The position numbers and the translations under genes were made by a program. Below are positions 5,300 to 20,710 of a DNA stretch of 64,000 nucleotides, piece after piece. Source of the DNA: an uncultured Clostridia bacterium (lineage in GTDB: Bacteria; Bacillota; Clostridia; Christensenellales; UBA1242); contig CAMRVD010000001.1 in NCBI GenBank assembly GCA_947054085.1, positions 24,676-88,675 of the forward strand, in the 5' to 3' direction. The notes under the pieces are model-generated. The model had not been told where the DNA came from and searched no databases. It was given only the letters and a program-made list of their open reading frames with translations. Numbering within the stretch: the stretch's first letter is position 1; the number at the start of each line of letters is the position of its first letter.

Positions 5300-5427
5300 T
5301 TTTAACGGCATAATTTTAGATTAGACGAGAGCATAATAAAACCCCACGATGCGATTTTACTTTGCGTAAATGAGCAGTGTGGGGTTTTATGTATAAACGA
5401 AGTATAACTAAAATTATGCCGTTAAAA
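5300..5427 (+). repeat. full-length 128-nt palindromic element (B), also the tuf terminator
   Basis: 19-bp perfect outer stem 5300-5318/5409-5427. Inner stem AAAACCCCAC/GTGGGGTTTT. Apex GATTTTACTTTGCGTAAATGAG. The right arm ends 1 nt from the tuf stop codon (5429-5431). Confidence 0.8.
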
Positions 5428-5428
5428 A

Positions 5429-6646
5429 CTATTTAATAATTTTAGAAACAACACCAGAACCAACAGTTCTGCCACCTTCACGAATAGCGAAGCGAAGTCC
5501 TTCTTCGATAGCAACAGGAGTAATTAGTTTAACTGTCATGCTTGTGTTATCGCCAGGCATAACCATCTCGGTACCTGCAGGTAGTTCGATAGAACCAGTA
5601 ACGTCTGTGGTACGGAAATAGAATTGTGGACGATAGTTGTTGAAGAATGGAGTATGACGACCACCTTCGTCTTTGGTTAGAACGTATACTTCTGCGTTAA
5701 ACTCGGTATGTGGATGTATAGAACCTGGTTTGCAAAGTACTTGACCACGTTCTACATCGGTTCTTTGGATACCACGTAGTAGTACACCAACGTTGTAACC
5801 AGCAACAGCTTCGTCAAGAAGTTTACGGAACATTTCGATACCGGTAACAACTGTAGATTGTTTAGCTTCTTTTAGACCTACGATTTCTACAGTGTCGTTA
5901 AGTTTAAGAACACCACGTTCTACACGACCAGTAACAACTGTACCACGGCCAGTGATTGTAAATACGTCTTCGATAGGCATTAGGAATGGTTTGTCGTTAT
6001 CACGAGCAGGAGTAGGAATGTAAGCGTCTACTGCGTCCATAAGTTCGCGAATAGCTTTTACATTGTCTGAATCCCATTTGCCAGCTTTAGCATCTTCTAG
6101 AGCTTGGAAAGCTGAACCACGGATAATAGGAGTGTTATCTCCGTCGAAACCGTAGTTAGAAAGAAGTTCTCTAACTTCCATGTCTACAAGGTCTGCAAGT
6201 TCTAAATCTGAGCCTAGTTGGTCCATTTTGTTCATAAATACAACAATTTTTGGAACACCAACCTGACGAGCAAGTAGAATGTGCTCTCTTGTTTGAGGCA
6301 TAACACCGTCGGTAGCAGCAACTACAAGGATAGCGCCATCCATCTGAGCAGCACCGGTGATCATGTTTTTAACATAGTCAGCGTGTCCTGGGCAGTCTAC
6401 GTGAGCGTAGTGACGATTTGCAGTTTGGTACTCGATATGAGCGGTATTAATTGTTATACCTCTTGCTTTTTCTTCTGGTGCTGAGTCTATTTGATCGTAG
6501 TCTTTAATTTCTTTGTTACCTGGGTCGTAGTCGTGTCCCATTATAAAAGAAATAGCAGCACTTAAAGTTGTTTTACCATGGTCAACGTGGCCGATTGTAC
6601 CAACGTTAACGTGTGGTTTTGAGTTGTCAAATTTTTGTTTTGCCAT
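5429..6646 (-). CDS. tuf: translation elongation factor Tu
   Basis: [22 protein letters not shown] and the whole-length EF-Tu sequence are unmistakable. 405 aa. Confidence 0.98.
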
Positions 6647-6681
6647 TGTTTGTTTTCTCCTTATTTTTTTGTGATTTATTT

Positions 6682-8760
6682 TTATGCTTTTTTAGCATTC
6701 TCACCAATTATTTTTTCTGCAACATTGCGTGGAACTTCGGCGTAGTGGCTTGGTTCCATAGTGTAGTTACCACGGCCTTGAGTGTTGCTTCTAAGGTCAG
6801 ATACGTATCCGAACATTTCGCTCATTGGAACTTCGGCACGTATAGTTTGTACACCATTTTTTAGGCTTGTTCCGGTAACACTACCACGGCGTTTAGATAC
6901 ATCGCCCATAACATCACCAAGATATTGATCCGGTACTTCTATTTCTACACTCATGATAGGTTCAAGAATTACTGGGTCGCCCTTTTTCATGCCATCCTTA
7001 AATGCCATACTTGCAGCAATCTTAAACGCCATTTCGCTAGAGTCTACTTCGTGGTAGCTTCCGTCGTATACAGTTGCTTTAAAGTCTACAGTTTCGTATC
7101 CAGCAAGCACACCGCTCATTTTGGCTTCTTGTATACCTTTGTCTACTGCAGGAATATATTCTTTAGGAATAGATCCACCAACAGTTTCGTCTACAAATTG
7201 GTAGCCGCTACCAGGTTCTAGTGGCTCAAAGCGTACTACGCAATGACCGTATTGACCTTTACCACCACTTTGACGAATGTATTTGCCTTCTACCGAAACT
7301 GCTTTTTTAATGGTTTCGCGGTAAGCAACCTGAGGCGCACCTACGTTACATTCTACCTTATATTCCCTTCTCATGCGGTCTACAATAATGTCTAAGTGAA
7401 GTTCGCCCATACCCTCTATAATAGTTTGACCAGTTTCTTGGTCGGTATGGCGTCTAAACGAAGGATCTTCTTCGGATAGTTTTTTAAGAGCATTAGCCAT
7501 TTTTTCTTGGTCAGCCTTAGTTTTTGGCTCTACCGCTAGGCTAATAACTGGCTCAGGAAATTCCATTGGGTCTAGTATAATAGGTTTACTTTCGTCGCAA
7601 AGGGTTTCGCCAGTGGTTGTGTCTTTTAACCCAACTAGGGCAACAATGTCGCCTGCATATGCTTCGGTTTCCTCTGTTCGGCTATTTGCGTGCATCCTTA
7701 CTAAGCGGCCGATACGCTCTTTAGTCCCCTTGTTAGAGTTATATACATAGCTACCCGATGTTAATTTACCCGAATATATTCTAAAGAATGTAAGGGTACC
7801 AAATTGGTCTTTAGCTATCTTAAATGCTAAGCCGCTAAGAGGTTCGTCGTCGCTAGCTTTACGAATAATTTTAGCTTCGGTTTTAGGATCAATGCCTTCT
7901 ACTGGAGGTATATCTATTGGGCTTGGGAAGTAATCTACAACTGCATCTAGTAGTAACTGTGTACCTTTGTTGCGGTAACTTGATCCGCAAAGCACTGGAG
8001 TTATTTGCAATGCTATTGTTCCTTTGCGGATTGCCTTTTTAATTTCGGCAACTGTAAGTTCTTCACCGTTAAAGTATTTTTCTAATAATTCGTCGTCTAG
8101 TTCGGCAACTGCTTCTATAAGAGCAGCTCTGTATTTTTCGGCTTCGGCTTTAAGGTCGGCTGGTATTTCGGTAACTTCTATTTGTTTACCTTCGTCGTCC
8201 TTATAAATTTCTGCCTTCATTTCTACAAGGTCTACAATACCTTTAAAGTTGTCTTCCTTACCAATAGGAATTTGAAGTGGTACTGCATTTGCACCAAGTT
8301 GTTCCCTCATGGCATTTACTGCTGCAAAAAAGTCTGCACCTAGTATATCCATTTTGTTTACGTAAGCAATACGAGGAACATGATACTTATCTGCCTGTTT
8401 CCAAACCTTTATAGATTGCGCTTGAACGCCTTCTTTAGCAGTAAATAGCTCTATTGCACCATCTAGGACTTTTAAGCTACGCTCTACTTCGATAGTAAAG
8501 TCTACGTGTCCTGGGGTGTCGATAATATTAATTTTATGATTTTTCCACATACAAGTGGTGGCAGCAGAAGTTATAGTTATACCACGCTCCTGCTCTTGGG
8601 CCATCCAGTCCATGGTAGCTTGACCATCATGAACTTCACCAAGTTTGTGAGATTTACCAGTATAATACAAAATACGCTCGGTGGTGGTGGTTTTACCAGC
8701 ATCGATGTGTGCCATTATACCAATGTTTCTGATTTTTTCTAATGCAAAATCTCTGGCCAT
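6682..8760 (-). CDS. fusA: translation elongation factor G
   Basis: [28 protein letters not shown]...; ATG at 8760 with AGGAGA SD. The 17-codon extension to 8811 in the ORF track is rejected. Confidence 0.97.
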
Positions 8761-8897
8761 ATAAATAATGATTCTCCTGTAAATTAGGTAAAATGGGCAA
8801 AACTCCCCCATTAACCTATAAGATATTATAATTTATTTGTAAAAAAATGCCAACTATTTTTAAACACTTTTTTATAATTTTTACATGTTTTTAGGCT

Positions 8898-8925
8898 ATT
8901 ATACCAAAAAATATGATATTTGCAA
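8898..8925 (-). promoter_or_regulatory. sigma-A promoter for fusA-tuf (extended -10)
   Basis: - strand TTGCAA (8925-8920), 16 nt ending in TGG, TATAAT (8903-8898). Confidence 0.6.
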
Positions 8926-9173
8926 CGTATATGCGTTGTAATTTACCCAAAACTTAAAATTAAACAGACCATAATGTCTGTTTAATTATTTTTTGTTATT
9001 TAAAAATATGTATTTTATTGCTAATTAATAATAATTTTCGCTTTAAGCGGTTGTAAGTTTTATAGCATATTTTTTGCAAAAATCTTACACCTAACACATA
9101 AAATTAACTATAAATGTAACATATTTTAGGGTGAAATTAGATGCTAGACTTCGTCGTAACTTTGCTTTATTTA

Positions 9174-9260
9174 TCGCAAATTTTAATTTGCTCTTTTTTT
9201 TGCAATGATACTCCTCTCCCCATACAGTTTATTCTAAACTTATGGGGCCCCGTATTTACA
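9174..9260 (+). repeat. X-family repeat, copy 2
   Basis: TCGCAAATTTTAATTTGCTC ... CTCCTCTCCCCA - hairpin (CCCCATA..AGTTT/AAACT..TATGGGG) - GGGGCCCCGTATTTAC. It abuts element copy C. Confidence 0.6.
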
Positions 9261-9295
9261 GATAGGAGCTTGACGATTGCGTAAGTGACTATTAG
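9261..9295 (+). repeat. short, degenerate copy (C) of the element apex
   Basis: GATAGGAGCTTGACGATTGCGTAAGTGACTATTAG. Its ATAGGAGCTT..GCGTAAGTGACTA matches copy G. Confidence 0.55.
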
Positions 9296-9404
9296 TACAA
9301 GGCAAGCATCTGCAGTATAGCACTAATTAATACTCTAAAATCATTTTAGCGTTATGATCCTTAGCAAGTCGGCAAAAATTAGAATTTTACTAAGGCTCGC
9401 CATG

Positions 9405-9452
9405 TTTGATCTCCCGCGATTTTACTAAAGCGTAAATGAGCGGGCGTCAAGC
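9405..9452 (+). repeat. short copy (D) of the palindromic element
   Basis: TTTGATCTCCCGC-GATTTTACTAAAGCGTAAATGA-GCGGGCGTCAAGC. Confidence 0.65.
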
Positions 9453-9496
9453 TTGGCAGTATATTTGCTGTAAGTTTAATTCTAACACAGCAACCA

Positions 9497-9624
9497 TTTT
9501 AGTGCGAGAATTTGATTTGCAGCTAGGCTCTCAAAAATTTAATCGTTAGGAGTTTACATAATTGTAAATGACTAATGATAAATTTTTGTAAAAACAACAC
9601 TGCAAACAAATTGTCGCACTAAAA
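9497..9624 (+). repeat. full-length 128-nt palindromic element (E), immediately after rpsG
   Basis: Outer stem TTTTAGTGCGA..AATTTGATTTGCAG / CTGCAAACAAATT.TCGCACTAAAA. Inner stem CAAAAATTTAATCGTTAG/CTAATGATAAATTTTTG. Apex GGAGTTTACATAATTGTAAATGAC. The right arm ends at 9624 and the rpsG stop is 9625-9627. Confidence 0.8.
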
Positions 9625-10095
9625 TTACCAGCGGTAGCTTGCAAAGGCCTTATTAGCTTCAGCCATTCTGTGCATTTCTTCTTTCTTTTTAAATGCACCA
9701 CCTGCTTGGTTGTATGCATCCATAAGTTCGTTGGCTAAACGCAAAGCCATAGTGCGGTCTGTGCGTTTGCGGGCGCTTGCCACAATCCAACGAATAGCAA
9801 GTGTTTGACGTCTAACTGGGCGAATTTCCATAGGAACTTGGTAAGTAGAACCACCTACACGGCGAGCTTTAACTTCTAGCACTGGTTTAACATTTTCTAG
9901 TGCTTTGTCCCAAACTTCCATAGCAGAAACGCCAAGTTTAGACGAACTTATTTCTAATGCTTCGTATACAATTTTTTGAGCGATTGTGCGTTTGCCGTCT
10001 TCCATAACTTGATTAATAAGTTTGGTTATATCTTTGCGGTTATATACAGTATCGGCAAGAACTTCTCTAACTATTGCAGCATTTCTTCTTGACAT
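9625..10095 (-). CDS. rpsG: 30S ribosomal protein S7
   Basis: 156 aa, full-length S7 sequence (…VKARRVGGSTYQVP…ANKAFASYRW). Confidence 0.97.
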   Translation of the reverse strand: MSRRNAAIVREVLADTVYNRKDITKLINQVMEDGKRTIAQKIVYEALEISSSKLGVSAMEVWDKALENVKPVLEVKARRVGGSTYQVPMEIRPVRRQTLAIRWIVASARKRTDRTMALRLANELMDAYNQAGGAFKKKEEMHRMAEANKAFASYRW

Positions 10096-10155
10096 TGTTA
10101 TTCCTCCATTTAATATTTAACTAAATATTTCTATTGCTTAACAGCACATTAAAAT

Positions 10156-10533
10156 TTATTTAGGACGTTTTGCACCATATTTGCTTCTTGCTTGTTTGCG
10201 ATCCTTAACACCAGCAGTATCTAAGGTGCCACGAACAATATGGTAACGCACACCAGGAAGGTCCTTTACACGACCACCACGAATAAGAACAACACTATGT
10301 TCCTGCAAATTGTGGCCAATACCTGGAATATAAACCGTACCCTCCATTTTGTTAGAAAGCCTTACTCTTGCAATTTTACGTAACGCTGAGTTAGGTTTTT
10401 TTGGAGATGTGGTAGTTACAGATAGACAAACGCCTCTTTTTTGAGGACACTCCTCTAGTATTGGAGATTTATCCTTAACGGTTTTGTCTTTTCTGCCCTT
10501 GCCATGACGGACTAATTGAGCGATGGTTGGCAT
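10156..10533 (-). CDS. rpsL: 30S ribosomal protein S12
   Basis: [15 protein letters not shown]…[10 protein letters not shown]…[15 protein letters not shown]: canonical S12. Confidence 0.97.
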
Positions 10534-10668
10534 ATTTTTACCTCCTATAAGTATAAAACGAACCCTCCAGCCCCATGGAGAAATTCTTGAAATTTTTTAT
10601 AGCCTAAATTTACACACCTATAAAAATTAGACACAAAAAAGCTCAAACACGATAATACATGCTTTGTT

Positions 10669-10697
10669 ATTTTACCAAACTAATAAAAATAAGTCAA
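10669..10697 (-). promoter_or_regulatory. sigma-A promoter for rpsL-rpsG
   Basis: - strand TTGACT (10697-10692), 17 nt, TAAAAT (10674-10669). About 130-nt leader. Confidence 0.55.
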
Positions 10698-10832
10698 TAC
10701 AATAACCAAACTTTTTATCACTTTTTTATAGTTTAGAAATATAAAAATAAAGCAAGTAGGGTATTTATTAAATCTACACATTTACTTTTTTACTTTTGTG
10801 CATCAAATTACTAATTTTTGCTGCCATATACT

Positions 10833-10857
10833 AAAAAAATGAGCATAATGCTCATTT
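10833..10857 (-). terminator. intrinsic terminator after 10861..11382
   Basis: - strand AAATGAGCA-TT-TGCTCATTTTTTT. Confidence 0.75.
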
Positions 10858-10860
10858 ATT

Positions 10861-11382
10861 CTATTTTACTCCGTTTTGCTTTATGTAGCCAATTTTATAG
10901 TCTAACTTTTTAAGTTTGCCAAGTACCGGTGCAAGCTCTACCGAAAGTGTGCTTTCTATCATTGACAATATTTTTCGCTCGTTTTGCTTACTAATATTAT
11001 AACTAAAATCGTACCCTTCTTTTTGTATGTCTACACCAACTAATTTACCATAAGTATAAAGTTTGTTGTAAGTAGAGTTTTTGCGATACTCTTCTACCTC
11101 GTATTTTGCAAGATCCAATATATTTGCAATATTTGCCTCGTCAACATTTTTAGTTAATTTTTTTATTTTTTTATTTAATTTTTTGGGCAATACTTCTATA
11201 ATAGTTTCAAAGGTAGAATAATAATTACTAAAATCCAAATTATCGTAAAGCTTAAGTACATGACATAAACTTTCGATATTTTTTATCTTTTGTATGTATT
11301 CGTAACTAGTGTAGCCATTGTCTTTGTAAACCGCAGTCCACCCCACCATTTGTGCTAAACTATTAAGGTCTATATATTTCAT
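10861..11382 (-). CDS. hypothetical protein (173 aa)
   Basis: Clean ORF, ATG start, own terminator. No family recognised. Confidence 0.55.
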   Translation of the reverse strand: MKYIDLNSLAQMVGWTAVYKDNGYTSYEYIQKIKNIESLCHVLKLYDNLDFSNYYSTFETIIEVLPKKLNKKIKKLTKNVDEANIANILDLAKYEVEEYRKNSTYNKLYTYGKLVGVDIQKEGYDFSYNISKQNERKILSMIESTLSVELAPVLGKLKKLDYKIGYIKQNGVK

Positions 11383-11409
11383 AAAAATCCTTTATTTATT
11401 TTTAAATGT

Positions 11410-11434
11410 AAAAGCACCAACGTAGGTGCTTTTA
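11410..11434. terminator. intrinsic terminator (bidirectional form)
   Basis: AAAAGCACC-AACGTA-GGTGCTTTT. Confidence 0.7.
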
Positions 11435-11461
11435 GATATTTTATATTATTAATCTTTTATT

Positions 11462-11974
11462 TTACTGCCATTCTGTTCCATTATATAATACATTATTTAT
11501 AGCAGCTTCCCTCTCGTTTAATTCTTGAAGCATAGGTGCAAAAGTATTACTATTCCTTGCTGCATCAATAACTTGAGCATAAGCAGATGACGCCATTTTT
11601 TTATATTGTTCAAACAACTTATTATTTTTATAAAAATCTAATATCTTTGATGCATCAAGTTCTACATTAATAGATTTATCTGTTGAAGCTGCTTCAAAAT
11701 CTTTTATATTATATAAATTCTTTTTGCTTACAAAATTGCAATATTCTGCAACAATAGCTGTATTATGATAATAGTCTTTTCTTGGCAAGCTTTCTTTACC
11801 TATTGCAAATCCTTTTATTTTTGTTTCGCCATTGTTAGCAAAGTTAGCCATGCACGCAATTTTGTCCATTCTAGAATTATATACAACTTGCATGCCAGCA
11901 TTTATTGCTTCGCTGATTAAAATCGCTTTAGTTAGATCGTTGTTTGTGTGCGACCCCGTATTTATTAATTCCAT
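11462..11974 (-). CDS. hypothetical protein (170 aa), translationally coupled to the HicB-like gene
   Basis: ATG at 11974, 2 nt after the upstream stop (11977-11979), with AAGGAGG inside the upstream gene's end. The 50-codon extension to 12124 overlaps that gene and is rejected. Confidence 0.6.
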   Translation of the reverse strand: MELINTGSHTNNDLTKAILISEAINAGMQVVYNSRMDKIACMANFANNGETKIKGFAIGKESLPRKDYYHNTAIVAEYCNFVSKKNLYNIKDFEAASTDKSINVELDASKILDFYKNNKLFEQYKKMASSAYAQVIDAARNSNTFAPMLQELNEREAAINNVLYNGTEWQ

Positions 11975-11976
11975 AG

Positions 11977-12312: not shown

Positions 12313-12408
12313 GGAATTCCCCTTTAGTAATAATTAATACATTTTTATATTAACACGCTAAGAACCAAAAAGTAAAATGTTTTTTAACTTTTAGTTTTGA
12401 CTATTTAG

Positions 12409-12534: not shown

Positions 12535-14562
12535 TTAAGCTGCCTTACCAAGATTTAAAGTTATTTGTGCTTCGTAAGTATTTACAAACACATCGTACAT
12601 ACTAGTATCCTGCAAAACAGGATTTTTAATAGACGATGCTTTATCGCCAAGCAGATCGCCATCTGCAAACACTGCACAAAGCTGACCTTTAGTGCTGTTT
12701 AAAAAGTAAGTGACTTTATTGTAAGCAGTACTTAACATATTTAAAGTTACTTTTCGGCTTATACCTTTGGTTTCTACCCTAACTTTGCCGCTAAGTTCTG
12801 CAAAGGTAAGATTAATGTCGCTTTCCGAATAAACGCGTACGTCACCTTTTAAATTACTAGCATTAATACTTCCTCTGCCAGTAAATACATCCACACCTTG
12901 AATGTTTGCGTCGCGGTTTATCCTTATATCTGTACTAGAGGCATTTGTAAAATCTATATGACCGTTTGCACATATATTAACTTTGCCGGTAGTGTTTTTT
13001 AAAGTAATATCGCCGTTGCCGCTATTTATTTTAGCTGCACCAACGTTACCAAGTTCGCCCACATTAACATTTCCCGAACTTGTTATTTCTACACCATCTA
13101 TTGCCGCACCTACATAAATATGGCTATAATTAGATGACACTTTTGCATGCCTTACACTCTGTACATTAACTTGCGAGCTATTACTATTAAGTGTAAGGTT
13201 TCCGCCAATAGTAGCTATATTTACAGCACTTGATGATGTGGTAACGGTAACATCTTTTCCGATGCTATTTAGCTTTATTTCGCCACTGTTACATGTTATT
13301 GTTGCCGTACCTTTAACTACTGGCGGAGTATTTCCAAAAATACTGCCACTTTCTGACACAACCAATAAGTTATTACAAGAAACAAACTTAATGTTACCAC
13401 TTTTTGTGTTTGCAGTAAAATCACCATCAATTGCACCAGTAAAAGTAATGTCGCCTGTCCTTGTATTGGCTACCGCATTTCCAGTAACTGCTCCGCACAA
13501 AATATCTCCACTAGCAGATGCTTCTGCATTTAAATTACCAGCAACTTTATTTATGTTAATGTTGCCAGTAGTAGTAACTATTTTTAAGTTATTAACACTT
13601 CCAAGCGTAACGGTAGACCTATTAGTTTGAATATCTAAACTGCCTAAACAACTTTCGATATTAATATATCCTGTGCGGCTGACAATTTTATTATTGTTGC
13701 CACGAACGCTTCCAAGATCGATATTACCACTAGTAGTTGTAACATTTATACTACCTAAAATTTGACCGCTAATTGGTTTTTTAATGCTACCCGAACTTGT
13801 TTCAACATTTAAGTTATCGCAACCTGCAAAACTTAAATCGCCACTGCCCGAATTAAAAGTTATGTCGCCACCAACAATATTTGTTATGCTTAAACTTTCG
13901 TTTGTAAGGTTTGCAATAACATCTCCATTAACTTTTACATTAGAACCTAAACTTACATATCGGTGAGTGTTAATTGTAAGTTGGTTAGTTATAGTAAGAT
14001 TACTATTATTAATATTTAGTCCGCCATTACTACTAAAGCTTAGATTATTTAAGGTTTGATTACCTCCGTTAAAATTAGCCTGGCTTTTTTGCGAATTAAT
14101 ATAAATATTATTATAATTTTCATATTCGCTAGGAAGATTTACATTTAAATAAAATTTTATATTTTCCCTTGCCCAAATAAATTTTTGATACTCGGTAACA
14201 TTAATGTAAACTGCACTATCTTTTGCGGGGTCAAACGTTTGCCCATCTTTGTTGGTGAGTGTTACATTTGGTACAACCTTAGCTTTTGCAAAACCTTGAT
14301 AATACTGTACAAACTCTACACCAAGAGGCGACTGACTGCCACTAAAATTAATATTTATTGGAACTTTGCTAGCGTTTATATATATATCTTTACTAGTAAA
14401 AGTTTGAATTATTGTTTGCTCGTGCTTACCAACCACACCCGAAACATATTTTATACCAAATATCTCTATTCCTGGGGCAAGCATCATAATAACAACTAAT
14501 GCAAAAATGGCGAACAGTATTACTCCTAAAATTATAGATATATAAATAAGTGCCTTTTTCAT
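12535..14562 (-). CDS. membrane-anchored beta-strand-repeat protein (DUF4097 / putative-adhesin-like)
   Basis: N-terminal TM helix followed by about 20 short repeats of the type TSGNIDLG, TTGNININ, ASGDILCG, RTGDITFT, KSGNIKFV, GNGDITLK. Confidence 0.6.
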   Translation of the reverse strand: MKKALIYISIILGVILFAIFALVVIMMLAPGIEIFGIKYVSGVVGKHEQTIIQTFTSKDIYINASKVPININFSGSQSPLGVEFVQYYQGFAKAKVVPNVTLTNKDGQTFDPAKDSAVYINVTEYQKFIWARENIKFYLNVNLPSEYENYNNIYINSQKSQANFNGGNQTLNNLSFSSNGGLNINNSNLTITNQLTINTHRYVSLGSNVKVNGDVIANLTNESLSITNIVGGDITFNSGSGDLSFAGCDNLNVETSSGSIKKPISGQILGSINVTTTSGNIDLGSVRGNNNKIVSRTGYINIESCLGSLDIQTNRSTVTLGSVNNLKIVTTTGNININKVAGNLNAEASASGDILCGAVTGNAVANTRTGDITFTGAIDGDFTANTKSGNIKFVSCNNLLVVSESGSIFGNTPPVVKGTATITCNSGEIKLNSIGKDVTVTTSSSAVNIATIGGNLTLNSNSSQVNVQSVRHAKVSSNYSHIYVGAAIDGVEITSSGNVNVGELGNVGAAKINSGNGDITLKNTTGKVNICANGHIDFTNASSTDIRINRDANIQGVDVFTGRGSINASNLKGDVRVYSESDINLTFAELSGKVRVETKGISRKVTLNMLSTAYNKVTYFLNSTKGQLCAVFADGDLLGDKASSIKNPVLQDTSMYDVFVNTYEAQITLNLGKAA

Positions 14563-14689
14563 AATCCGCTCCCCTTTTTTACATAGATATTATATATATT
14601 ATAATGCCTACTATTATTATTGTCAATATATATGCTTTTTATGGATTGACAGAATTAAAAAAACCTTAACCCGCAATCTTAGGTTGCAT

Positions 14690-14800
14690 AAGCTAAGGCC
14701 ATTATTTATGAAGGACGAGTGCACTATGTCTGCCCACTCACGGATTTTAATTAAGCGTAAATGAATAGTAGCGGGCAGGCATAAGAAAATATAGGATTTA
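14690..14800 (+). repeat. degenerate copy (F) of the palindromic element
   Basis: AAGCTAAGGCCATTATTTATGAAGGACGAGTGCAC..GTCTGCCC..GGATTTTAATTAAGCGTAAATGAA..GGGCAGGC ATAAGAAAATATAGG. Boundaries approximate. Confidence 0.55.
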
Positions 14801-14831
14801 AGAAATTTAAACTCACTTCTTATTGTTATAT

Positions 14832-14961
14832 AATTAAGGCTATTATTTTATGAAAGGCGAGTGCTCAAAAAATGCTAGCGATAGGAGCTTACTTATGCGT
14901 AAGTGACTAGTGCTAGCATTTTTTAGAAAGCGAATTATTTTATGAAAGAATAGCCTTAATT
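14832..14961 (+). repeat. full-length 130-nt palindromic element (G); right arm lies inside the alaS CDS
   Basis: AATTAAGGCTATT 14832-14844 is the exact reverse complement of 14949-14961. Inner stem AAAAAATGCTAGCG/TGCTAGCATTTTTT. Apex GGAGCTTACTTATGCGTAAGTGAC. Confidence 0.8.
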
Positions 14962-16763
14962 CGGCGGACGCCGGCAGAAGAAGCCTCTTCCTTAACAATC
15001 TTAAACTTACCTAAAGAACCGGTATTTTGTACATGCGGACCACCGCAAATTTGAAAGTCGATATCACCAATTTTATAAACGCTGACAACTTCGTCCGCAG
15101 TGCCGTTATAAATACCATATGCACCACTGTTTAATGCCTCTTTATAAGGCATCTCGTGCCTAGTTACTGCAATATTTTGTTCTATAACATTATTAACAAA
15201 ATCTTCTAGAGTTTTAATTTCTTCGGATGTCATCTTATGGTCTAAATTAAAGTCAAAACGCATACGCTCATGGGTTATATTGCTGCCCTTTTGTACCGTT
15301 TTTTCGCCAAACATACGTCTAAGCCCTGCAAGCATGATATGAGTTGCTGTATGGTACGCAGTTTCCTTTTCTCCAGTAGCTGATAGTCCGCCCTTATTTT
15401 CACCCTTATGAGCGGTTCTTGCTAGTTCTTGATGCTCAGAAAAAGCTTTGTTGTATCCGTCCATATCTACGGTTAGTCCTTGTTCTGCCGCCATTTCCGA
15501 AGTAATTTCTACCGGAAAACCATAGGTTTCGTATAGCCTAAAGGCCTGTTTGCCGCTTATAGTTGTTTCTGGCATATAACCTGGGTTAGATTTTGCCATA
15601 AATTCGTTTTTACGATTAATCCCACTAACAACTTTTTCAAACTCCTTAGTACCGGCAATTATCGTTTTTTCAAACTTGTCAGCCTCGGCTTTAATACTAT
15701 CTAGTATGTATTGTTGTTTTTCTACAAGAAGTGGGTATGCTTTATCATAAACTTTTGTAATATAAATGTTGCAAATGTTTAGTAAGTCCTGTGTTGTAAG
15801 CCCTAGTTTACGAGCATGACGAATAGAGCGGCGAAGCAGTCTGCGTAAGATGTATCCGCTGCCGACATTGCTTGGAAGTATTCCGTCTTTGTCGCCAATA
15901 AGCATAACGCTAGTACGCATATGGTCAGCAACGATTCGCATACTTTTGGTTTTTTGCTCGTCCTCGCCATACTTAATGTTTAAGGCGTCTTCCATATAAT
16001 TAATTACGCCCAAAAATAGGTCGGTTAAATAGCCGTCGGTAAGGCCGTTAACATACATAAGTAACCGCTCAAACCCAAAACCGGTGTCTACGTTTTTATT
16101 TTTTAATGGAGTGTAGCCGCTATCGGTTTTAAGATACTGCATATAAACATCGTTGCCGACTTCTACCCACCTGCCGCAATCACAAGTAACATCGCAATGC
16201 TCGCTGCAAGGCTTATCTGTTATTGGATAAAACCATTCGTTATCGGGCCCACAAGGGGTGTTGGTTGTACCCTCTAGCTCCCACCAGTTATCTTTTAGGT
16301 AATAGATATTTTGCGGCTTAACCCCTGCCTTTACTAGGCAATCTACAGCCTCATCGTCTTTTGGAACATCACTATTCCCCGCAAAAACGGTGGCACAAAT
16401 TTTATCTTTGTTAAACCCTATAACCTTTGTTAAAAATTCAAACGACCATTGAGTTTTTTGCTCTTTAAAATAATCGCCCAAACTCCAGTTACCCATCATT
16501 TCAAAAAAAGTAAAGTGACTAAAATCGCCAACTTCGTCTATATCAACCGTACGTACACAGCCCTGAACATTACAAAGCCGAGTTTTTCCGCTTGGATGCT
16601 TTTTACCAAGTAAATACGGCATAAGCGGTTGCATTCCCGCAACATTAAACATAACACCAGTGCTTCCATCGCCAATAAGCGATACCCCACCAATATCGAT
16701 GTGCCCTTTTTCTTTATAAAAATTTAGCCACTTTTCTCTAAGTTCTTTAGAAGTTAATTTCAT
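14940..16763 (-). CDS. alaS: alanine--tRNA ligase, short form without C-Ala domain (607 aa)
   Basis: Class II AlaRS core (…FTFFEMMGNWSLGDYFK…), editing domain (HTATHIM…, CGGPHV). Ends at …SAGVRRIKAILS. Confidence 0.92.
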   Translation of the reverse strand: MKLTSKELREKWLNFYKEKGHIDIGGVSLIGDGSTGVMFNVAGMQPLMPYLLGKKHPSGKTRLCNVQGCVRTVDIDEVGDFSHFTFFEMMGNWSLGDYFKEQKTQWSFEFLTKVIGFNKDKICATVFAGNSDVPKDDEAVDCLVKAGVKPQNIYYLKDNWWELEGTTNTPCGPDNEWFYPITDKPCSEHCDVTCDCGRWVEVGNDVYMQYLKTDSGYTPLKNKNVDTGFGFERLLMYVNGLTDGYLTDLFLGVINYMEDALNIKYGEDEQKTKSMRIVADHMRTSVMLIGDKDGILPSNVGSGYILRRLLRRSIRHARKLGLTTQDLLNICNIYITKVYDKAYPLLVEKQQYILDSIKAEADKFEKTIIAGTKEFEKVVSGINRKNEFMAKSNPGYMPETTISGKQAFRLYETYGFPVEITSEMAAEQGLTVDMDGYNKAFSEHQELARTAHKGENKGGLSATGEKETAYHTATHIMLAGLRRMFGEKTVQKGSNITHERMRFDFNLDHKMTSEEIKTLEDFVNNVIEQNIAVTRHEMPYKEALNSGAYGIYNGTADEVVSVYKIGDIDFQICGGPHVQNTGSLGKFKIVKEEASSAGVRRIKAILS

Positions 16764-16952
16764 GATAATTTCCTTGATATTTTTGTTGATATTATTTACA
16801 TAAGCTTTAGAAAAATAACTTATGTTTTTTTACCGGCGAAAGATTATTGCCTTATAGATAAAAGATCCTTCGACTTGCGTACCGCTCGCTCGAGGACTAG
16901 CTAAAAAGTATTACATTTTATAGATTTTTGTAAGCTTACTCAAAATCAAAAT

Positions 16953-18635
16953 CTAATTTATTGTATTTGGTTTATAACTATCTTTAAGTGATACTGTGCG
17001 GTTAAACACAAGTTTGTCTGCAGTGCTGTCTTTATCTAGGCAGAAGTAGCCCGTACGCAAAAATTGATAGCGGTCGGTATAATTAAATTCTACATCGTCC
17101 TCTGCGTAGCAATTGTTTAAAATTGTTAGCGAATTTGGATTAAACTCGTCGTCCGCCGCCGTCTGCTCCTTGCCGCCAGCAGCATTATCTTCTTTTGGAA
17201 GTGTCAAGTTTTCGAATAGCCTAACTTCTACTTGTTTTGCGTGGTTCTGGTTAATCCAGTGAATTGTACCCTTAACTTTTTTAGTACAGTTACTACCAGA
17301 CTTTGTTTCTGGGTCGTAATCTGCATAAACAGTTGCAACATTACCGCTATCGTCCAAATCGTAGCCCGTACATTTTACAATAAATGCACCGTTTAACCTA
17401 ACTTCGTTACCTACAAAAAGTCTGCGATATTTTGGTGGCGGAGTAATTTCAAAGTCCGAACGCTCTATATATAAATTTTTACCAAAATAGTATTTGCGTT
17501 TAGAGGTTTCTTCCTTTTGAGGGTAATCTGCTAAACTTATTTCTATCTCCTCGTCATCTGCTAGGTTGTTTATAACAAGTTTAATAGGATCGGTTACAAC
17601 CATAACACGCTTAGAGCAATCGTTAAGGGTATTTCGCACAAAGTAGTCTAGCATTGCAGGATCTATAACCGACACTGCCTTACTTATGCCTGCCGCATAC
17701 ACAAAATCTATTAGGCTTTGAGGCAGTATTCCGCGGCGACGAAGCCCTCGGATTGTATAAAGCCTTGGGTCGTCAAAACCGCTAACTTTGCCCTCGTTTA
17801 CTAGTTTTTTTATAAACCTTTTGCCTAGTATTACGCCCTTTATATAAAGGTTAGCGTACTCTATTTGGCGGCTATGATTAGTAAGCCCGCTATTTTCTAC
17901 CACCCAGTTATATAGTGGACGGTGATCCTCAAACTCGGGACCGCAAAGTGAATGCGTTACCCCCTCGATGCAGTCGTCTAGTGGGTGCGAAAAGTCGTAC
18001 GATGGATAAATTTTCCACTTGTCGCCAATGCGTTGATGATGTAAGTATTGTATGCGGTAAATAACCGGGTCACGCATATTTATGTTAGGGTGAGCCATAT
18101 CTATTTTAGCCCTTAAGCACCTTTCGCCCTGCTTAAACTCGCCGTTTTTCATACGCTCAAAAAGGTCTAAATTCTCCTCTACACTGCGGTCACGGTATGG
18201 GCTGTTTTTGCCGGGAGTTGTAAGCGTTCCGCGGTAAGCAGAAACCTCTTCTGCAGAAAGGTCGTCTACATACGCCTTACCCTCTTTAATAAGTTTTACC
18301 GCTATTTGATAGTTTTGCTCAAAATAGTCGGTAGCGTAATAAATATTGCCCCAATTATACCCCAGCCATTTTACATCTTCCTGGATGGCGTCTACAAACT
18401 CTTGACTTTCCTTTTCGGGGTTGGTGTCGTCGTAACGCAAATTACAAACGCCGCCGTATTTTTTTGCCGTGCCATAGTTAAGTACAATGTTTCGTACATG
18501 GCCTATATGCATGTATCCGCTAGGCTCTGGTGGCTGACGGGTTTGAACAAAACCCTTAACCTTGCCCTCTAAAATATCTTTGTTAATTTCGGCTTCTATA
18601 AAGTTAGTCACCTCTATTGGTTTAGATTTTTCCAT
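16953..18635 (-). CDS. glnS: glutamine--tRNA ligase
   Basis: PEPSGYMHIGH (HIGH motif), …FDDPRLYTIRGLRRRG…, GlnRS-type C-terminal anticodon-binding region. ATG at 18635 preferred over the upstream extension. Confidence 0.88.
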   Translation of the reverse strand: MEKSKPIEVTNFIEAEINKDILEGKVKGFVQTRQPPEPSGYMHIGHVRNIVLNYGTAKKYGGVCNLRYDDTNPEKESQEFVDAIQEDVKWLGYNWGNIYYATDYFEQNYQIAVKLIKEGKAYVDDLSAEEVSAYRGTLTTPGKNSPYRDRSVEENLDLFERMKNGEFKQGERCLRAKIDMAHPNINMRDPVIYRIQYLHHQRIGDKWKIYPSYDFSHPLDDCIEGVTHSLCGPEFEDHRPLYNWVVENSGLTNHSRQIEYANLYIKGVILGKRFIKKLVNEGKVSGFDDPRLYTIRGLRRRGILPQSLIDFVYAAGISKAVSVIDPAMLDYFVRNTLNDCSKRVMVVTDPIKLVINNLADDEEIEISLADYPQKEETSKRKYYFGKNLYIERSDFEITPPPKYRRLFVGNEVRLNGAFIVKCTGYDLDDSGNVATVYADYDPETKSGSNCTKKVKGTIHWINQNHAKQVEVRLFENLTLPKEDNAAGGKEQTAADDEFNPNSLTILNNCYAEDDVEFNYTDRYQFLRTGYFCLDKDSTADKLVFNRTVSLKDSYKPNTIN

Positions 18636-18793
18636 ATAATTTCTCTTGATTAATATAATTTTATTTGTTTTTAAATTTTGTTTTAACAATAAGCATTAAA
18701 ATTAATGCGTAGATAAATTTGCTTTATCTTTAAAATAACTAAATTATCTTTTTGTATGTACCTATATGCTAAAAATAGCATTTAAATATTTTT

Positions 18794-20344
18794 CTAGCTA
18801 TCAAAAATATCGTCTACTGGAGGCATTGTGGCCTGCTGCTCTGGTGGAATATCACCGCCAGTATAACTAAATCCGCCGTAATCCGCCGACAAATCGTCAA
18901 AGCCCTTAGGTAGTTCGCTTTGCGGAATATCGCTAAAAATATCACTGACATTGCTGTCGTCTATAACTGCACCATGCATCGCTTCGTAGGCTTGCTCTAA
19001 ACTCTTTTCGTTTTGGTCTTTAGAAAGGTTTACAAAACTTACGCGGTTGCCGTCCCAACCAACATTAACGCTGCCTGGCTGACCATTACGGAATTTTGCA
19101 ATAATAAGCTCTGCAACATAGCTTTCGTTTTTAATTGGCTCGCCTTCTGGCTGATCTTTGCGGTCGATAAATATAATCATATCCGCGTCTTGCTCTATCG
19201 CACCGGACTCTCTTAGGTCGCTTAGCATTGGGCGATGACCTTGTCTGCTTTCTACCGCACGTGATAACTGCGAAAGCACAATTACTGGCACATCTATTTC
19301 TTTGGCTAATATTTTCATGTTACGACTCATCTCCGATACTTCGGTTTGACGATTATCGGTTTTAGAATCGCCCGTCATAAGCTGAAGATAGTCTACAACC
19401 ACTAGGTCTAGTCCGCGTTCGCGTTTAAGCTTACGGCATTTTGCTAGTATTTGCGATGGTTTATTTAAGCTATTGTCGTCGCAATAAATGCTAGCCCCCG
19501 CAAGTTTTTTATGCGCACCCCAAAGCTTAACCCAATCGCGTTCGTTTAACTCGCCCGCTCTGGCCTTACCCATATCTACACCTGCAATCGAGCATAGCAT
19601 ACGCTGTGCAAGTTGCTCTCGCCCCATTTCCAAGCTAAATATGGCACATTTTGCTTTGTCATCTATAGCGGCGTTGCTAACAATGTTCATAGCTAAACTG
19701 GTTTTACCTATGCCGGGACGTGCAGCTAAAATAATTAAATCGGTCTTTTGAAGCCCACCTATTTTTTTATCTAAAGCAATAAATCCAGTACGAACACCAC
19801 GTTTAGTACCACCATCTTGATTAATTTCTTCAAAAATTTCCATGGCGTTATTAAACGCACCACTCATGTTTTCTAGCCCACTAGAAGAACCGTCTTCGCC
19901 AATTTCGTACAATGCCTTTTCTGCATCGGCTAAAATATCTGTACTGTCTGCTTCGTAAGCTTTGCTTGCAACATTAGAACATGTTTCGATTATCTGGCGA
20001 AGAACACTATCGCGTTTTACAATCTCGGTATAACTTGCATGATACGCACTACTAGGCACAGCATTAGTAAGGCTTGTTATGTAGTTTATGCCTCCAACAG
20101 CTTCTAACTTTTCACGTTTTTCTAGTATATCTATAAGAGTTACAAAATCTACTGGTTTTGCTTGCAAATATAAGTCCTTCATAGCCTCAAAAATTATTTT
20201 ATGAGTTTCGCTATAAAAATCCTTAGGCTCTAGCTGCCCCACTATTGTTTCTGCAGCTAAGCTATCTATAAGTGCACTGCAAAGCACTGCTTGCTCTGCC
20301 TCCAAATTATTTGGCATAACCCTTGCTGTAACTTTTTTTGCCAT
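18794..20344 (-). CDS. dnaB: replicative DNA helicase DnaB with about 80-aa acidic C-terminal extension
   Basis: NLEAEQAVLCSALID…, Walker A ARPGIGKTS, …VVVDYLQLM…SQLSR. ATG at 20344 with AGGAG SD. Confidence 0.93.
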   Translation of the reverse strand: MAKKVTARVMPNNLEAEQAVLCSALIDSLAAETIVGQLEPKDFYSETHKIIFEAMKDLYLQAKPVDFVTLIDILEKREKLEAVGGINYITSLTNAVPSSAYHASYTEIVKRDSVLRQIIETCSNVASKAYEADSTDILADAEKALYEIGEDGSSSGLENMSGAFNNAMEIFEEINQDGGTKRGVRTGFIALDKKIGGLQKTDLIILAARPGIGKTSLAMNIVSNAAIDDKAKCAIFSLEMGREQLAQRMLCSIAGVDMGKARAGELNERDWVKLWGAHKKLAGASIYCDDNSLNKPSQILAKCRKLKRERGLDLVVVDYLQLMTGDSKTDNRQTEVSEMSRNMKILAKEIDVPVIVLSQLSRAVESRQGHRPMLSDLRESGAIEQDADMIIFIDRKDQPEGEPIKNESYVAELIIAKFRNGQPGSVNVGWDGNRVSFVNLSKDQNEKSLEQAYEAMHGAVIDDSNVSDIFSDIPQSELPKGFDDLSADYGGFSYTGGDIPPEQQATMPPVDDIFDS

Positions 20345-20581
20345 CAACATGCTCCTATGTATAAAAATATATATAAAATATACTACTAATAAAGCCAAAC
20401 TGTCAAGAACAAATAATAAACCGAGCATACATTGTATAATTTGGTTTATTTAAACAACATGTTCCACAAATTTTATAAATATAATTTCTACTCAAAACAA
20501 AAACACCAGCATAACGCCAGTTGTTTTTTTATTAATATATTTCCTAAGTTTTATGGTTAAACCAAAAAAATTACTATACCC

Positions 20582-20710
20582 TTTAAACGGCGAGAATTAG
20601 TGCAAGATGAGTGCTCTAAAAAAGCCAGCGATGGAAGTTTACTTTGCGTAAATGACCAGTGCTGGCGTTTTTAAGAAAGCGAAATATTGTACTAATTATC
20701 GCCGTTTAAA
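20582..20710 (+). repeat. full-length 129-nt palindromic element (H) overlapping the rpsR stop codon
   Basis: TTTAAACGGCGA/TCGCCGTTTAAA and GAATTAGTGCAA/TTGTACTAATT outer stems. Inner stem AAAAAAGCCAGC/GCTGGCGTTTTT. Apex GGAAGTTTACTTTGCGTAAATGAC. Confidence 0.8.

Follow-up and report, generated by a model that had tools for sequence, protein, structure and literature searches.

ERIC-type repeats adjoining the stop codons of translation genes in an uncultured gut Clostridia lineage

The DNA analysed here, referred to as the window, is a 64-kb stretch of an uncultured Clostridia genome in which tuf, rpsG, alaS and rpsR lie on the − strand. Eight ERIC-type copies, all on the + strand, occur between positions 5206 and 20713. 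They were located with a covariance model of the inner part only (R1), seeded with seven copies and applied to the whole window with all filters disabled. R1 matched 5206–5245, 5342–5384, 9256–9299, 9406–9450, 9539–9582, 14732–14775, 14874–14917 and 20624–20666, with E values from 1.7e-14 to 7.4e-7, and it recovered the first copy (c1) although this was absent from the seed. A ninth copy was not found in the 64 kb, the next best match having E = 0.65. Because R1 gives exactly these eight matches, eight copies lie within about 16 kb and the remainder of the window has none, as an initial annotation of this DNA had claimed. A second model (R2) was built from 24 enterobacterial-type ERICs only. 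The features, with model scores and NCBIfam gene assignments, are as follows.

4868–5429, no strand assigned: strain-variable segment holding c1 and c2 (comparison of assemblies)
5016–5044, − strand: terminator of the conventional kind (hairpin, then T7), beyond c2 and c1 when read in the gene sense
5206–5245, + strand: c1, short copy consisting of the core hairpin, with TTTTTT after it on the + strand (R1 32.1 bits, E = 7.4e-7)
5297–5430, + strand: c2, long element, core 5342–5384, TA-flanked (R2 full length, E = 4e-5; R1 54.8 bits)
5429–6646, − strand: tuf (TIGR00485, EF-Tu, 713.6 bits)
8958–8987, no strand assigned: conventional terminator, bidirectional, beyond c5, c4 and c3 when read in the gene sense
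9256–9299, + strand: c3, short copy, core only, one extra base in the apical stem (R1 37.1 bits)
9374–9486, + strand: c4, degenerate, nearly full length, core 9406–9450 (R1 38 bits; R2 positions 13–123, E = 0.09)
9494–9627, + strand: c5, long element, core 9539–9582 (R2 full length, 49.4 bits, E = 2.6e-11)
9625–10095, − strand: rpsG (TIGR01029, 209 bits)
14690–14800, + strand: c6, core 14732–14775 (R1 42.5 bits)
14829–14964, + strand: c7, long element, core 14874–14917 (R2 full length, E = 2.4e-7)
14940–16763, − strand: alaS, short 607-aa form, 3′ end inside c7 (NF002436, 699 bits)
20505–20521, − strand: terminator of the conventional kind, beyond c8 when read in the gene sense, ahead of dnaB
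20579–20713, + strand: c8, long element, core 20624–20666 (R2 full length, E = 7.7e-5)
20706–20969, − strand: rpsR (TIGR00165, 99.5 bits)

The four long copies are imperfect palindromes of 128–136 nt (134–136 nt as matched by R2). At the apex of each, a 5-bp stem (YTTAC/GTAAR) under a loop of 4–6 nt stands on a 3 × 3 internal loop (GAG/TGA) and a 3-bp helix, below which a variable stem leads through an internal loop to a long outer stem; the conserved apex has the consensus AGGAGYTTAC-N4–6-GTAARTGACT. A kink-turn was considered for the 3 × 3 loop and rejected, as the alignment has the loop symmetric, with no 3-nt bulge before the tandem G·A/A·G. The remaining copies are incomplete to different degrees. 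The right flank of c4, GCTTGGCAGTA, is also present in a second element behind rpsG of one relative (L013; flank comparison), and the left arm of c6, AAGGCCATTATTTATGAAGGACGAGTGC, nearly duplicates that of c7, with the matching right arm absent in c6. We infer that decay or partial duplication of elements gave rise to the short copies. Beside c3, window position 9223 is a breakpoint in several independent assemblies.

The long copies make direct contact with the ends of the − strand genes. The arm of c2 reaches 5427, leaving 1 nt to the tuf stop codon (5429–5431); that of c5 reaches 9624 and abuts the rpsG stop codon (9625–9627) at a distance of 0 nt; and that of c8 ends at 20710, overlying the rpsR stop codon (20706–20708). 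The right arm of c7 (14940–14961) includes the alaS stop codon together with the last seven codons (RIKAILS, then stop). The 813-nt spacer between rpsG and fusA (6682–8811) contains c5, c4 and c3. Docking at these four stop codons had been described before, as had the coordinates and the layered hairpin, and the sequence at those positions and the NCBIfam identities agree. The orientation is not particular to the window: among copies with a stop codon 20–70 nt from the core, the same orientation outnumbers the opposite one by 52:4 over three classes (18:1 in Clostridia, 12:2 in the enteric class and 22:1 in the other class).

Each long copy folds as a single hairpin, with z scores against 200 dinucleotide shuffles of −9.35 (c2), −12.11 (c5), −8.88 (c7) and −10.19 (c8), and none of the 200 shuffles of any copy folds as well as the native sequence. 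In 11 full-length Clostridial copies, pairing is kept in 93.1% of cells and, in shuffles, in 63.7%, with changes on both sides in 27 of 32 pairs; these values were reached by 0 of 500 shuffles, and slid registers pair at 45.5% at most. The compensatory change proposed for the arms is thus borne out, and pairing at the level of shuffled AT-rich sequence is excluded. Conservation is highest at the centre and lowest in the arms, the sequences of which vary between copies and species while complementarity is retained. A generic MITE has terminal inverted repeats that are conserved in sequence between copies and match an autonomous IS. Such conservation does not occur here: the outer arms differ and stay complementary.

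The initial annotation had assigned the repeats to no named family, remarking in passing that their layout recalls ERIC. The remark was right and the assignment wrong, because the apex is the ERIC core and R2 matches the long copies at full length. The family, ERIC/IRU or RU-1 (enterobacterial repetitive intergenic consensus), was reportedly described by Sharples and Lloyd in 1990 and by Hulton et al. in 1991. The conserved apex corresponds to the ERIC/IRU core, at which the ERIC1R and ERIC2 primers are aimed, and the two primer sequences are found together in 233 papers; GTGAATCCCCAGGAGCTTACATAAGTAAGTGACTGGGGTGAGCG includes ERIC2 and the reverse complement of ERIC1R. The inner 26–30 nt are common to the window copies and the ERIC central inverted repeat, and c7 has exact AGGAGCTTAC and GTAAGTGACT in common with the GTGAATCCCCAGGAGCTTACATAAGTAAGTGACTGGGGTGAGCG core; the GC-rich CCCC/GGGG of the ERIC core stem is replaced in the window by variable sequence. 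A core pattern derived from the window pulled canonical ERICs from metagenomes, one of them 100% identical to Escherichia coli DNA, and the corresponding element is present in 5,426 of 5,426 complete E. coli genomes at a median of 12 places per genome.

R2 matches all four long copies over model positions 1–133 on the + strand (E = 2.6e-11 to 7.7e-5); the match to c4 is marginal, and in c1, c3 and c6 only the core matches. Core-only R2 matches score 21–28 bits. Because the core supplies about 24 bits of each R2 score, and covariance models reward long hairpins, the flanks of c2 and c8 (26–28 bits) add little, and full-length homology of these two is argued from architecture and from the Clostridial relatives, which R2 matches at full length (63 bits for L056 and 50 bits for L083). 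The junction motifs that flank the ERIC core stem (..AAGGCGGCAAG.. on the left, ..GCAGCCAACGCA.. on the right) were scored as AAGG/AGGC and AACG/ACGC, respectively, with both required. They occur together in 19 of 28 enteric, 33 of 46 other and 6 of 18 Clostridial relatives' copies, compared with 0–1 copies in controls with swapped sides or the complementary strand; in the window they are degenerate, and no copy (0 of 8) has both. Rfam has no family for these elements: only tRNAs attain a gathering score in the window, the overlaps at E values up to 10 are limited to miRNA hairpin models (mir-7940 and MIR7996, both on c5), far below gathering scores, and no overlap with elements was found in 20 other loci. 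The match to a described repeat that the annotation had allowed for therefore exists in substance, in ERIC, and not in Rfam itself. Taken together, the window repeats are very probably a divergent branch of the ERIC/IRU family in an uncultured gut Clostridia lineage.

The likeness to ERIC extends to length (128–136 nt compared with 127 bp), to the single long imperfect palindrome with helices and internal loops in the same order, to the near-identical apex, to the TA at both ends that reviews report for ERIC, to an extragenic position adjoining or overlapping stop codons in one preferred orientation, and to the presence of shortened variants beside full ones. The window elements differ in being AT-rich, in having arm sequences that are unconserved between copies, in carrying GAGTGC and AAAGCGAA in place of the junctions AAGGC and AACGCA, and in clustering as eight copies in 16 kb behind translation genes; Clostridial copies also have A5–7/T4 tracts beside the core that enterobacterial ones lack. 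Yersinia ERIC copies at stop codons are also said to share one orientation (De Gregorio et al., 2005).

Other repeat systems are more distant. Integron attC sites, such as the Vibrio cholerae repeats, are imperfect palindromes of about 60–140 nt that directly follow ORFs in one orientation, conserve structure rather than arm sequence, and are active as one folded strand. The window elements are likewise palindromic, right behind ORFs, in one orientation and conserved in structure over arm sequence. However, inspection finds no R″/R′ boxes (RYYYAAC...GTTRRRY) at their ends, they have no integrase or cassette array, and their apex is conserved, whereas the terminal structure of attC is variable. 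SPRITE, BOX and RUP of Streptococcus pneumoniae and Correia/NEMIS of Neisseria are also small folded repeats of 100–200 nt in transcribed intergenic DNA, co-transcribed at gene 3′ ends as the window elements presumably are, and SPRITE is terminator-like. They are unrelated to the window elements in sequence and conserve their terminal inverted repeats, in contrast to the conserved centre seen here; in Correia RNA it is the paired ends that are cut by RNase III. Both Correia elements and ERIC influence mRNA processing (PMC3049150, PMC10969869).

Conventional terminators lie farther downstream of the clusters at tuf, rpsG and rpsR, that at 8958–8987 just preceding promoter-like sites upstream of fusA (8925–8898 and 8853–8825). 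Long copies with the stop codon of a translation gene on one side and a conventional terminator on the other occupy a 3′-UTR position. In the Clostridial branch the core hairpin lies between A5–7 and T4 tracts (median runs A5/T4, compared with 0/0 and 1/0 in the other two classes), so that the gene sense reads a hairpin followed by U4–6 in c2, c5, c7 and c8. The earlier reading of a U-run in the mRNA sense was incomplete in this respect: with an A run on one side and a T run on the other in these four copies, either strand reads a hairpin and then a U tract. The core hairpin would probably serve for intrinsic termination or attenuation before the conventional terminator is reached. It is nevertheless unlike an ordinary intrinsic terminator, being a 43–44-nt hairpin that contains two internal loops, has an apex conserved across phyla and is set within a second, outer stem the distal arm of which lies beyond the U tract; 43-nt irregular core stems are atypical of intrinsic terminators, a simple consensus scan flagged none of the core hairpins, and three short copies (c3, c4 and c6) lack a T run, whichever strand is read. 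The initial annotation had argued that a plain terminator leaves the conserved apex and the outer stem unexplained, and we concur.

ERIC is described as a 127-bp MITE with TA duplication that is co-transcribed with its neighbours and affects upstream mRNA in an orientation-dependent manner through an RNase E site (PMC2229807, PMC10969869, PMC3049150). The most likely role of the window elements, with about an even chance, is that of co-transcribed 3′-UTR hairpins that affect termination or mRNA stability. In such a mechanism the element would be transcribed along with the upstream gene. The hairpin begins over the stop codon or 0–6 nt past it, so that a ribosome terminating there would have to melt the base of the outer stem, which would couple translation to the 3′-UTR fold. 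This coupling, which we put forward only tentatively, would match the mechanism proposed for Yersinia ERIC, in which the distal arm holds an RNase E site that becomes unmasked.

The strand on which the elements fold best is unexpected if an mRNA-sense hairpin is the selected form. The + strand, which runs antisense to the docked genes, is the better-folding one in 95 of 99 distinct elements (mean difference −12.6 kcal/mol) and in all eight window copies; the better-folding strands hold 447 G·U pairs and the others 194. Outside the core, the better-folding strand has 239 G·U pairs and 81 A·G mismatches and just 10 A·C, the A·C and C·U mismatches falling on the mRNA-sense strand outside the core as well. 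The 3 × 3 loop forms tandem G·A plus G·U on the + strand and pyrimidine mismatches (UCA/CUC) on the other, and the T6 run of c1 is on the + strand only. An mRNA-sense description alone is thus incomplete, since the canonical loop and the G·U pairs are antisense to the genes. Nor would deamination account for the bias: the − strand is G-rich by GC skew and presumably leading, and deamination would then place G·T pairs on the − strand, contrary to observation. The functional form might therefore be the + strand, which is the ERIC-consensus strand, working either as a small RNA, antisense or independent, or as a hairpin of single-stranded DNA that serves in copying or moving the element, with the anti-orientation docking a consequence of strand use. 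We consider this unlikely. A consistent promoter-like site upstream of the copies on the + strand was not found, only c6 and c7 having one (14578–14605 and 14806–14834), and promoter-like matches in the AT-rich region barely exceed those in shuffles (63 compared with 51). Copies from outside the Clostridial set often lie in either orientation with respect to their neighbouring genes (26 ‘−−’ and 14 ‘++’), and IS200/IS605-type single-strand transposition would expect the active strand on the lagging-strand template, which here would be the − strand.

Still less probable is that the repeats are selfish, MITE-like DNA with no host function, their place behind stop codons a TA target preference in A/T-rich sequence near TAA/TAG, and their orientation bias and retained pairing merely what is tolerated there. 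ERIC is classed as a MITE with TA target duplication (PMC2229807, PMC3184786, PMC10969869), and TA flanks all four long copies, although this is weak evidence of insertion in DNA of 34% GC in which pairing extends past the TA. Copies also differ between strains: the 562-nt segment with c1 and c2 is replaced, in two assemblies otherwise about 99% identical to the window (L004 and L008), by 93 nt with only a plain terminator that resembles 5016–5044 and directly follows tuf. Presence/absence polymorphism, which the initial annotation had suggested as a check, thus exists, but this sole site is a replacement, and a clean insertion with duplicated TA was not seen there. The pile-up of decayed or partly duplicated copies (c1, c3, c4 and c6) beside intact ones, in a cluster that is itself a site of assembly breaks, would suit selfish DNA. 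Conservation that is highest at the centre is the reverse of that in a transposase-bound MITE, palindromic termini alone cannot produce the 52:4 orientation bias, and the same sites are occupied in other species, with compensatory changes. In other Clostridia metagenome-assembled genomes, R2 also matches orthologous copies that follow rpsG, tuf and rpsR (rpsG in L013, L014, L024, L056 and L083; rpsR in L020 and L023), and these belong to several species in which S7 is just 66–79% identical to that of the window. Occupation of the same sites at this distance, together with the compensatory changes, indicates long residence under selection for structure.

That the repeats are instead elaborate bidirectional intrinsic terminators of a Clostridial lineage, unrelated to ERIC and similar by convergence, would fit their place at gene 3′ ends, the A/T tracts found beside the core in Clostridial copies only and the degenerate window junctions, but is very improbable given at least 20 specified apex bases in common with ERIC, full-length matches to an ERIC-only model, junction motifs in Clostridial relatives, an identical docking orientation in all classes, conventional terminators farther downstream of each cluster, and copies (c3, c4 and c6) without a T run on either strand.

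Members of the ERIC/IRU family serving as 3′-UTR hairpins in gut Clostridia are, overall, the best explanation of these repeats, and one that we consider reasonably likely. In reviews up to 2024 the host range of ERIC is confined to Enterobacteriaceae and Vibrionaceae (PMC10969869). The window falls outside this range, its nearest relatives being Clostridia metagenome-assembled genomes, which is a matter of distribution rather than of structure; ERIC homologues are found on Bacteroidota contigs too. The ERIC-type repeats described here lie in a Clostridia genome, far outside the bacteria in which ERIC is stated to occur.

Eight copies of a hairpin element lie in a part of the window (34% GC overall) where, from position 533 to 21860, every gene is on the minus strand. 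The genes that matter here were named with NCBIfam.

Genes around the elements
5429-6646, minus strand, tuf
6682-8811, minus strand, fusA
9625-10095, minus strand, rpsG
10156-10533, minus strand, rpsL
14940-16763, minus strand, alaS (short form)
16953-18689, minus strand, glnS
18794-20428, minus strand, dnaB
20706-20969, minus strand, rpsR
21135-21554, minus strand, ssb
21579-21860, minus strand, rpsF

Hairpin copies
c1, 5206-5245, plus strand, shorter or degenerate copy
c2, 5297-5430, plus strand, long copy at tuf
c3, 9256-9299, plus strand, shorter or degenerate copy
c4, 9374-9486, plus strand, shorter or degenerate copy
c5, 9494-9627, plus strand, long copy at rpsG
c6, 14690-14800, plus strand, shorter or degenerate copy
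c7, 14829-14964, plus strand, long copy at alaS
c8, 20579-20713, plus strand, long copy at rpsR

The closest named relatives of the S7 protein encoded in the window are from uncultured Clostridia MAGs (66-79% identity), and an identical S7 occurs on ten metagenome contigs, each ~99% identical to the window. Away from the elements, a single 4926-aa ORF (49139-63919, minus strand) contains many internal direct repeats, with repeat families D1-D7 recurring at spacings of 615-1716 nt, and presumably encodes a giant repetitive surface protein. Two inverted tRNA-Met genes lie 521 nt apart (40822-40898, minus strand; 41418-41583, plus strand), the second adjoined by a tRNA-Glu gene.

Read directly, the sequence at the copies matches its description in the initial annotation. 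The count of eight was also reproduced by R1, a covariance model of the inner part seeded with seven window copies, which in an unfiltered run on the entire 64 kb gave exactly eight matches, all on the plus strand. Their E-values range from 1.7e-14 to 7.4e-7, the one copy outside the seed was recovered, and the next best match in the 64 kb has an E-value of 0.65. Each of the four long copies folds into one hairpin, and does so better than shuffled sequence: 0/200 dinucleotide shuffles were as good, with z-scores of -8.9 to -12.1 on the plus strand and -6.9 to -10.2 on the minus strand.

Searches of Rfam at gathering and permissive thresholds matched the elements to none of the described RNA families; the only hits were to miRNA hairpin models and fell far short of the gathering scores. 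Metagenome contigs scanned with the apex pattern AGGAGYTTACN{4,6}GTAARTGACT yielded at least 120 stretches, and many among the matches listed carry GTGAATCCCCAGGAGCTTACATAAGTAAGTGACTGGGGTGAGCG within a 127-nt palindrome. We take GTGAATCCCCAGGAGCTTACATAAGTAAGTGACTGGGGTGAGCG to be the core of ERIC (enterobacterial repetitive intergenic consensus, or IRU), an identification that we then checked in three ways. Its two halves are primer ERIC2 and primer ERIC1R in reverse complement, and the two primer sequences co-occur in 233 papers. One element of this type is 100% identical to E. coli DNA and is found in every one of 5426 complete genomes of that species (median, 12 matching places per genome), and the enterobacterial sRNA sraL occurs on one contig bearing three ERIC copies. 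ERIC has been known since 1990, and ERIC-PCR typing, used on all kinds of bacteria, is named after it.

We then compared the window with R2, a covariance model seeded with 24 enterobacterial-type elements and zero Clostridial sequence, run with filters off. On the plus strand, R2 covers all 133 model positions in the four long copies (E 2.6e-11 for c5, 2.4e-7 for c7, 4e-5 for c2 and 7.7e-5 for c8, the flanks of c2 and c8 contributing little) and gives a marginal match to c4 (E 0.09); Clostridial relatives are also full-length matches (63 bits at locus L056, 50 bits at L083), but the apex by itself accounts for about 24 bits of each R2 score, and a covariance model favours any long hairpin. The ERIC junction motifs (left AAGG/AGGC, right AACG/ACGC) occur together in 19/28 enteric elements, 33/46 elements of a class we call 'other' and 6/18 Clostridial relatives, against 0-1 in controls. 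None of the eight window copies has the pair; these positions are occupied by GAGTGC and AAAGCGAA. Because the apex, the architecture and closer relatives tie it to the canonical form, and given the full-length R2 matches, the family, which the initial annotation had left unnamed, is a divergent branch of ERIC. What is new is a divergent member in an unexpected phylum, the family itself being already known. In reviews, up to one from 2024, true ERIC is confined to Enterobacteriaceae and Vibrionaceae and is described as a 127-bp MITE-like palindrome with a TA duplication, co-transcribed with its neighbours, which in Yersinia acts on upstream mRNA by way of an RNase E site, with an effect that depends on orientation (PMC2229807, PMC10969869, PMC3184786, PMC3049150).

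The copies are built around the apex.

Parts of the element on the plus strand, from the apex outward
Apical loop of 4-6 nt
5-bp stem, YTTAC/GTAAR
Symmetric 3x3 internal loop, GAG (or GAT, AAG) opposite TGA
3-bp helix, CAG/CTG, TAG/CTA, TGG/CCA or TGC/GCA
G.U plus an A/G mismatch, then a variable stem
A run and T run, internal loop and outer stem of 20-25 bp (long copies only)

On this strand, the contacts in the 3x3 loop are G.A, A.G and then G.U or U.U. The apex motif is present in 12/80 related Clostridia loci, mostly directly behind rpsG, tuf or rpsR, and covariation is seen in each of the three inner helices (among the pairs are TTTAC/GTAAA, CTTAC/GTAAG, TTATC/GATAA, TGTAC/GTACA and TTTAT/ATAAA). 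Compensatory change between the arms, first suggested from the window copies, held when 11 full-length Clostridial copies were aligned to an outside model: 93.1% of cells are paired versus 63.7% in shuffles, in an alignment fitted to the model's structure. Among these copies, 27/32 pairs changed on both sides, no shuffle equals the observed values, and sliding the register lowers pairing to 45.5% or less. The strongest constraint falls on the centre of the element, not on its ends.

Other identities were rejected or lacked support. The symmetric loop has no 3-nt bulge, as a kink-turn or L7Ae-type site would; the hammerhead- or hairpin-ribozyme-like GAUGAG...CGAAA of the outer loop was found on inspection to lie at a two-way, not a three-way, junction and to be window-specific; and inspection found no attC R boxes. 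IS200/IS605 or REP-RAYT-type single-strand hairpins were not supported, as the better-folding strand is on the leading-strand template, judged by GC skew, and there is no GTAG-type motif. On the plus strand, the apex of c7 (14874-14917), c2 (5342-5384) and c8 (20624-20666) has a Shine-Dalgarno-like AGGAG ahead of a three-codon ORF, AGGAG-N7-ATG CGT AAG TGA in c7 and TTG CGT AAA TGA in c2 and c8. A start codon is missing here from many copies, and the stem shows covariation, so we rejected a plus-strand mini-ORF in the apex; as it is not conserved across copies, the ORF is probably a coincidence.

Docking on stop codons is directly readable. The gene-proximal arm lies 1 nt from the tuf stop and 0 nt from the rpsG stop, covers the rpsR stop and, at alaS, includes the stop together with the last seven codons. 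There the right arm of c7 (14940-14961) encodes the end of the short-form protein, RIKAILS*, so that the repeat supplies the C-terminus. Nearby, a perfect sigma-70-like promoter, TTGACA-17-TATAAT (14626-14598, minus strand), overlaps an 11/12 promoter match on the plus strand (14578-14605), from which transcription would run through c6 and c7 in the antisense direction relative to alaS. Orientation was counted for all distinct elements with a stop codon 20-70 nt from the core, the window type being that in which the ERIC consensus strand is complementary to the strand found in the mRNA.

Orientation relative to the docked gene
Clostridial class: window-type 18, opposite 1, both 0
Other class: window-type 22, opposite 1, both 1
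Enteric class: window-type 12, opposite 2, both 1

The lone Clostridial exception, a tuf-docked copy on contig L012 (13976-14017), has flanks in the usual orientation and only its asymmetric apex inverted, so the centre of the palindrome can flip. TA stands at both flanks of all four long window copies. Stop-codon docking and preferred orientation are common to the window branch and ERIC, for which reviews also describe TA at the flanks.

Runs of A and T flanking the core set the Clostridial branch apart. Their medians are A5 and T4 in Clostridial copies and 0/0 and 1/0 in the other two classes, the 'other' class lacking them though equally AT-rich. Read in the gene sense, the core is therefore a hairpin followed by U4-6. 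Conventional terminators lie past each cluster, which places the elements after the stop codon but ahead of such a terminator.

Conventional terminators
5016-5044, further downstream of the cluster
8958-8987, bidirectional
20505-20521, further downstream of the cluster

Strains that are ~99% identical differ at tuf. On contigs L004 and L008, c1 and c2 are absent and a plain terminator directly follows tuf, with c3-c5 retained; the 562-nt segment 4868-5429 (c1, c2 and GC-rich sequence) corresponds to 93 nt at L004:5251-5343 and L008:5653-5745. This is segment replacement, not clean insertion, with a breakpoint within the last tuf codons marked by synonymous differences (ATT ATT AAA TAG versus ATA ATA AAA TAA). 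Several species share tuf ends that bear the element (ATT AAA TAG TTTTTAG...), and the docked copy therefore seems to be ancestral in this clade. Next to c1 (~4870-5200) and c3 (9205-9255) are short blocks whose GC-rich sequence contrasts with the AT-rich surroundings; examples on one strand or the other are GGCTCCCC, GGGGTCCCC, GGGGAGCTGGCGGCCAGAGGCTGACTGAGGGG, GGGGGAGCCC and GGGGCCCC, some of them mutually complementary. They have no Rfam match and may be a second small repeat or structured RNA. The 813-nt rpsG-fusA spacer (8812-9624) holds three elements, the 8958-8987 terminator and promoter-like sites before fusA, and the str operon therefore appears split there. Four independent assemblies stop at position 9223, within the repeat cluster. 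The elements account for the long str-operon spacers, the assembly breaks there and the alaS 3' end in these MAGs.

The two strands are not equivalent. Of 99 distinct elements drawn from all classes, 95 fold better on the strand of the ERIC consensus than on the complementary one, by a mean of 12.6 kcal/mol and with 447 versus 194 G.U pairs. This asymmetry extends beyond the core, where 239 G.U pairs and 81 A.G mismatches but just 10 A.C mismatches fall on the consensus strand, and the mismatches of the complement are A.C and C.U. For the window copies it is the plus strand, antisense to every docked gene, that folds better. The minus strand is G-rich by GC skew and is presumably the leading strand, so deamination bias would predict the opposite asymmetry. 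Two explanations remain. The strongly folding orientation may be selected against right behind a stop codon, or the consensus strand may be the one that is used, as RNA or single-stranded DNA. On the plus strand, promoter-like sites do not consistently precede the copies, and an antisense promoter was rejected for that reason.

The position, structure, conservation, orientation bias and tracts of the elements were observed, and all that concerns transcription, termination and decay is inferred. The reading that we find best supported is a co-transcribed 3'-UTR hairpin. A terminating ribosome would melt the base of the hairpin, as proposed for Yersinia ERIC, and in this lineage the core with its U and A tracts would also cause termination or attenuation before the conventional terminator is reached.

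The family also reaches other phyla. Three contigs of the AT-rich 'other' class encode proteins with a T9SS type A sorting domain, for which the curated cut-off is 23 bits.

T9SS type A sorting domain proteins
L131, 49.1 bits
L126, 46.3 bits
L138, 32.5 bits

T9SS is a marker of Bacteroidota, to which these contigs belong on this evidence. R2 matches are full-length on L126 (E 3.7e-8) and L138 (E 2.8e-4) and limited to the apex on L131. Two further contigs carry the purD RNA motif, which is characteristic of Campylobacterota, and are tentatively assigned there. Among IMG/VR viral or prophage contigs (L211-L232), 22 stretches carry the apex pattern, mostly near contig ends; blastn of one window copy and one Bacteroidota-type copy against a plasmid collection gave no match. 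An incomplete literature search found no report of ERIC homologues outside Gammaproteobacteria.

True homologues stand at conserved rpsG, tuf and rpsR sites in gut Clostridia, and those on Bacteroidota contigs have the same docking and orientation, so the family has either spread very widely by horizontal transfer or is of great age. It is possible, though we consider it doubtful, that ERIC is not an enterobacterial MITE but only the branch found in enterobacteria of an old family, whose structured, strand-specific elements would extend across Gammaproteobacteria, Bacteroidota, Clostridia and perhaps Campylobacterota. In that case, the 26 nearly invariant nucleotides of the apex, where a tandem G.A loop lies under a 5-bp stem, would be a candidate site for binding by a conserved factor, either cellular or from a mobile element. 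The fixed docking, by which the mRNA receives the weaker complement, would then come from a conserved coupling with terminating ribosomes, or from the opposite strand being the one in use. The value of the finding lies in comparative evidence, namely cross-phylum apex conservation, common stop-codon docking and strand asymmetry, which bears on the question of how the apex is recognised, and by what, and on the reason for structure on one strand, and the cross-phylum homologues offer fresh material on the unsettled origin, movement and function of ERIC.
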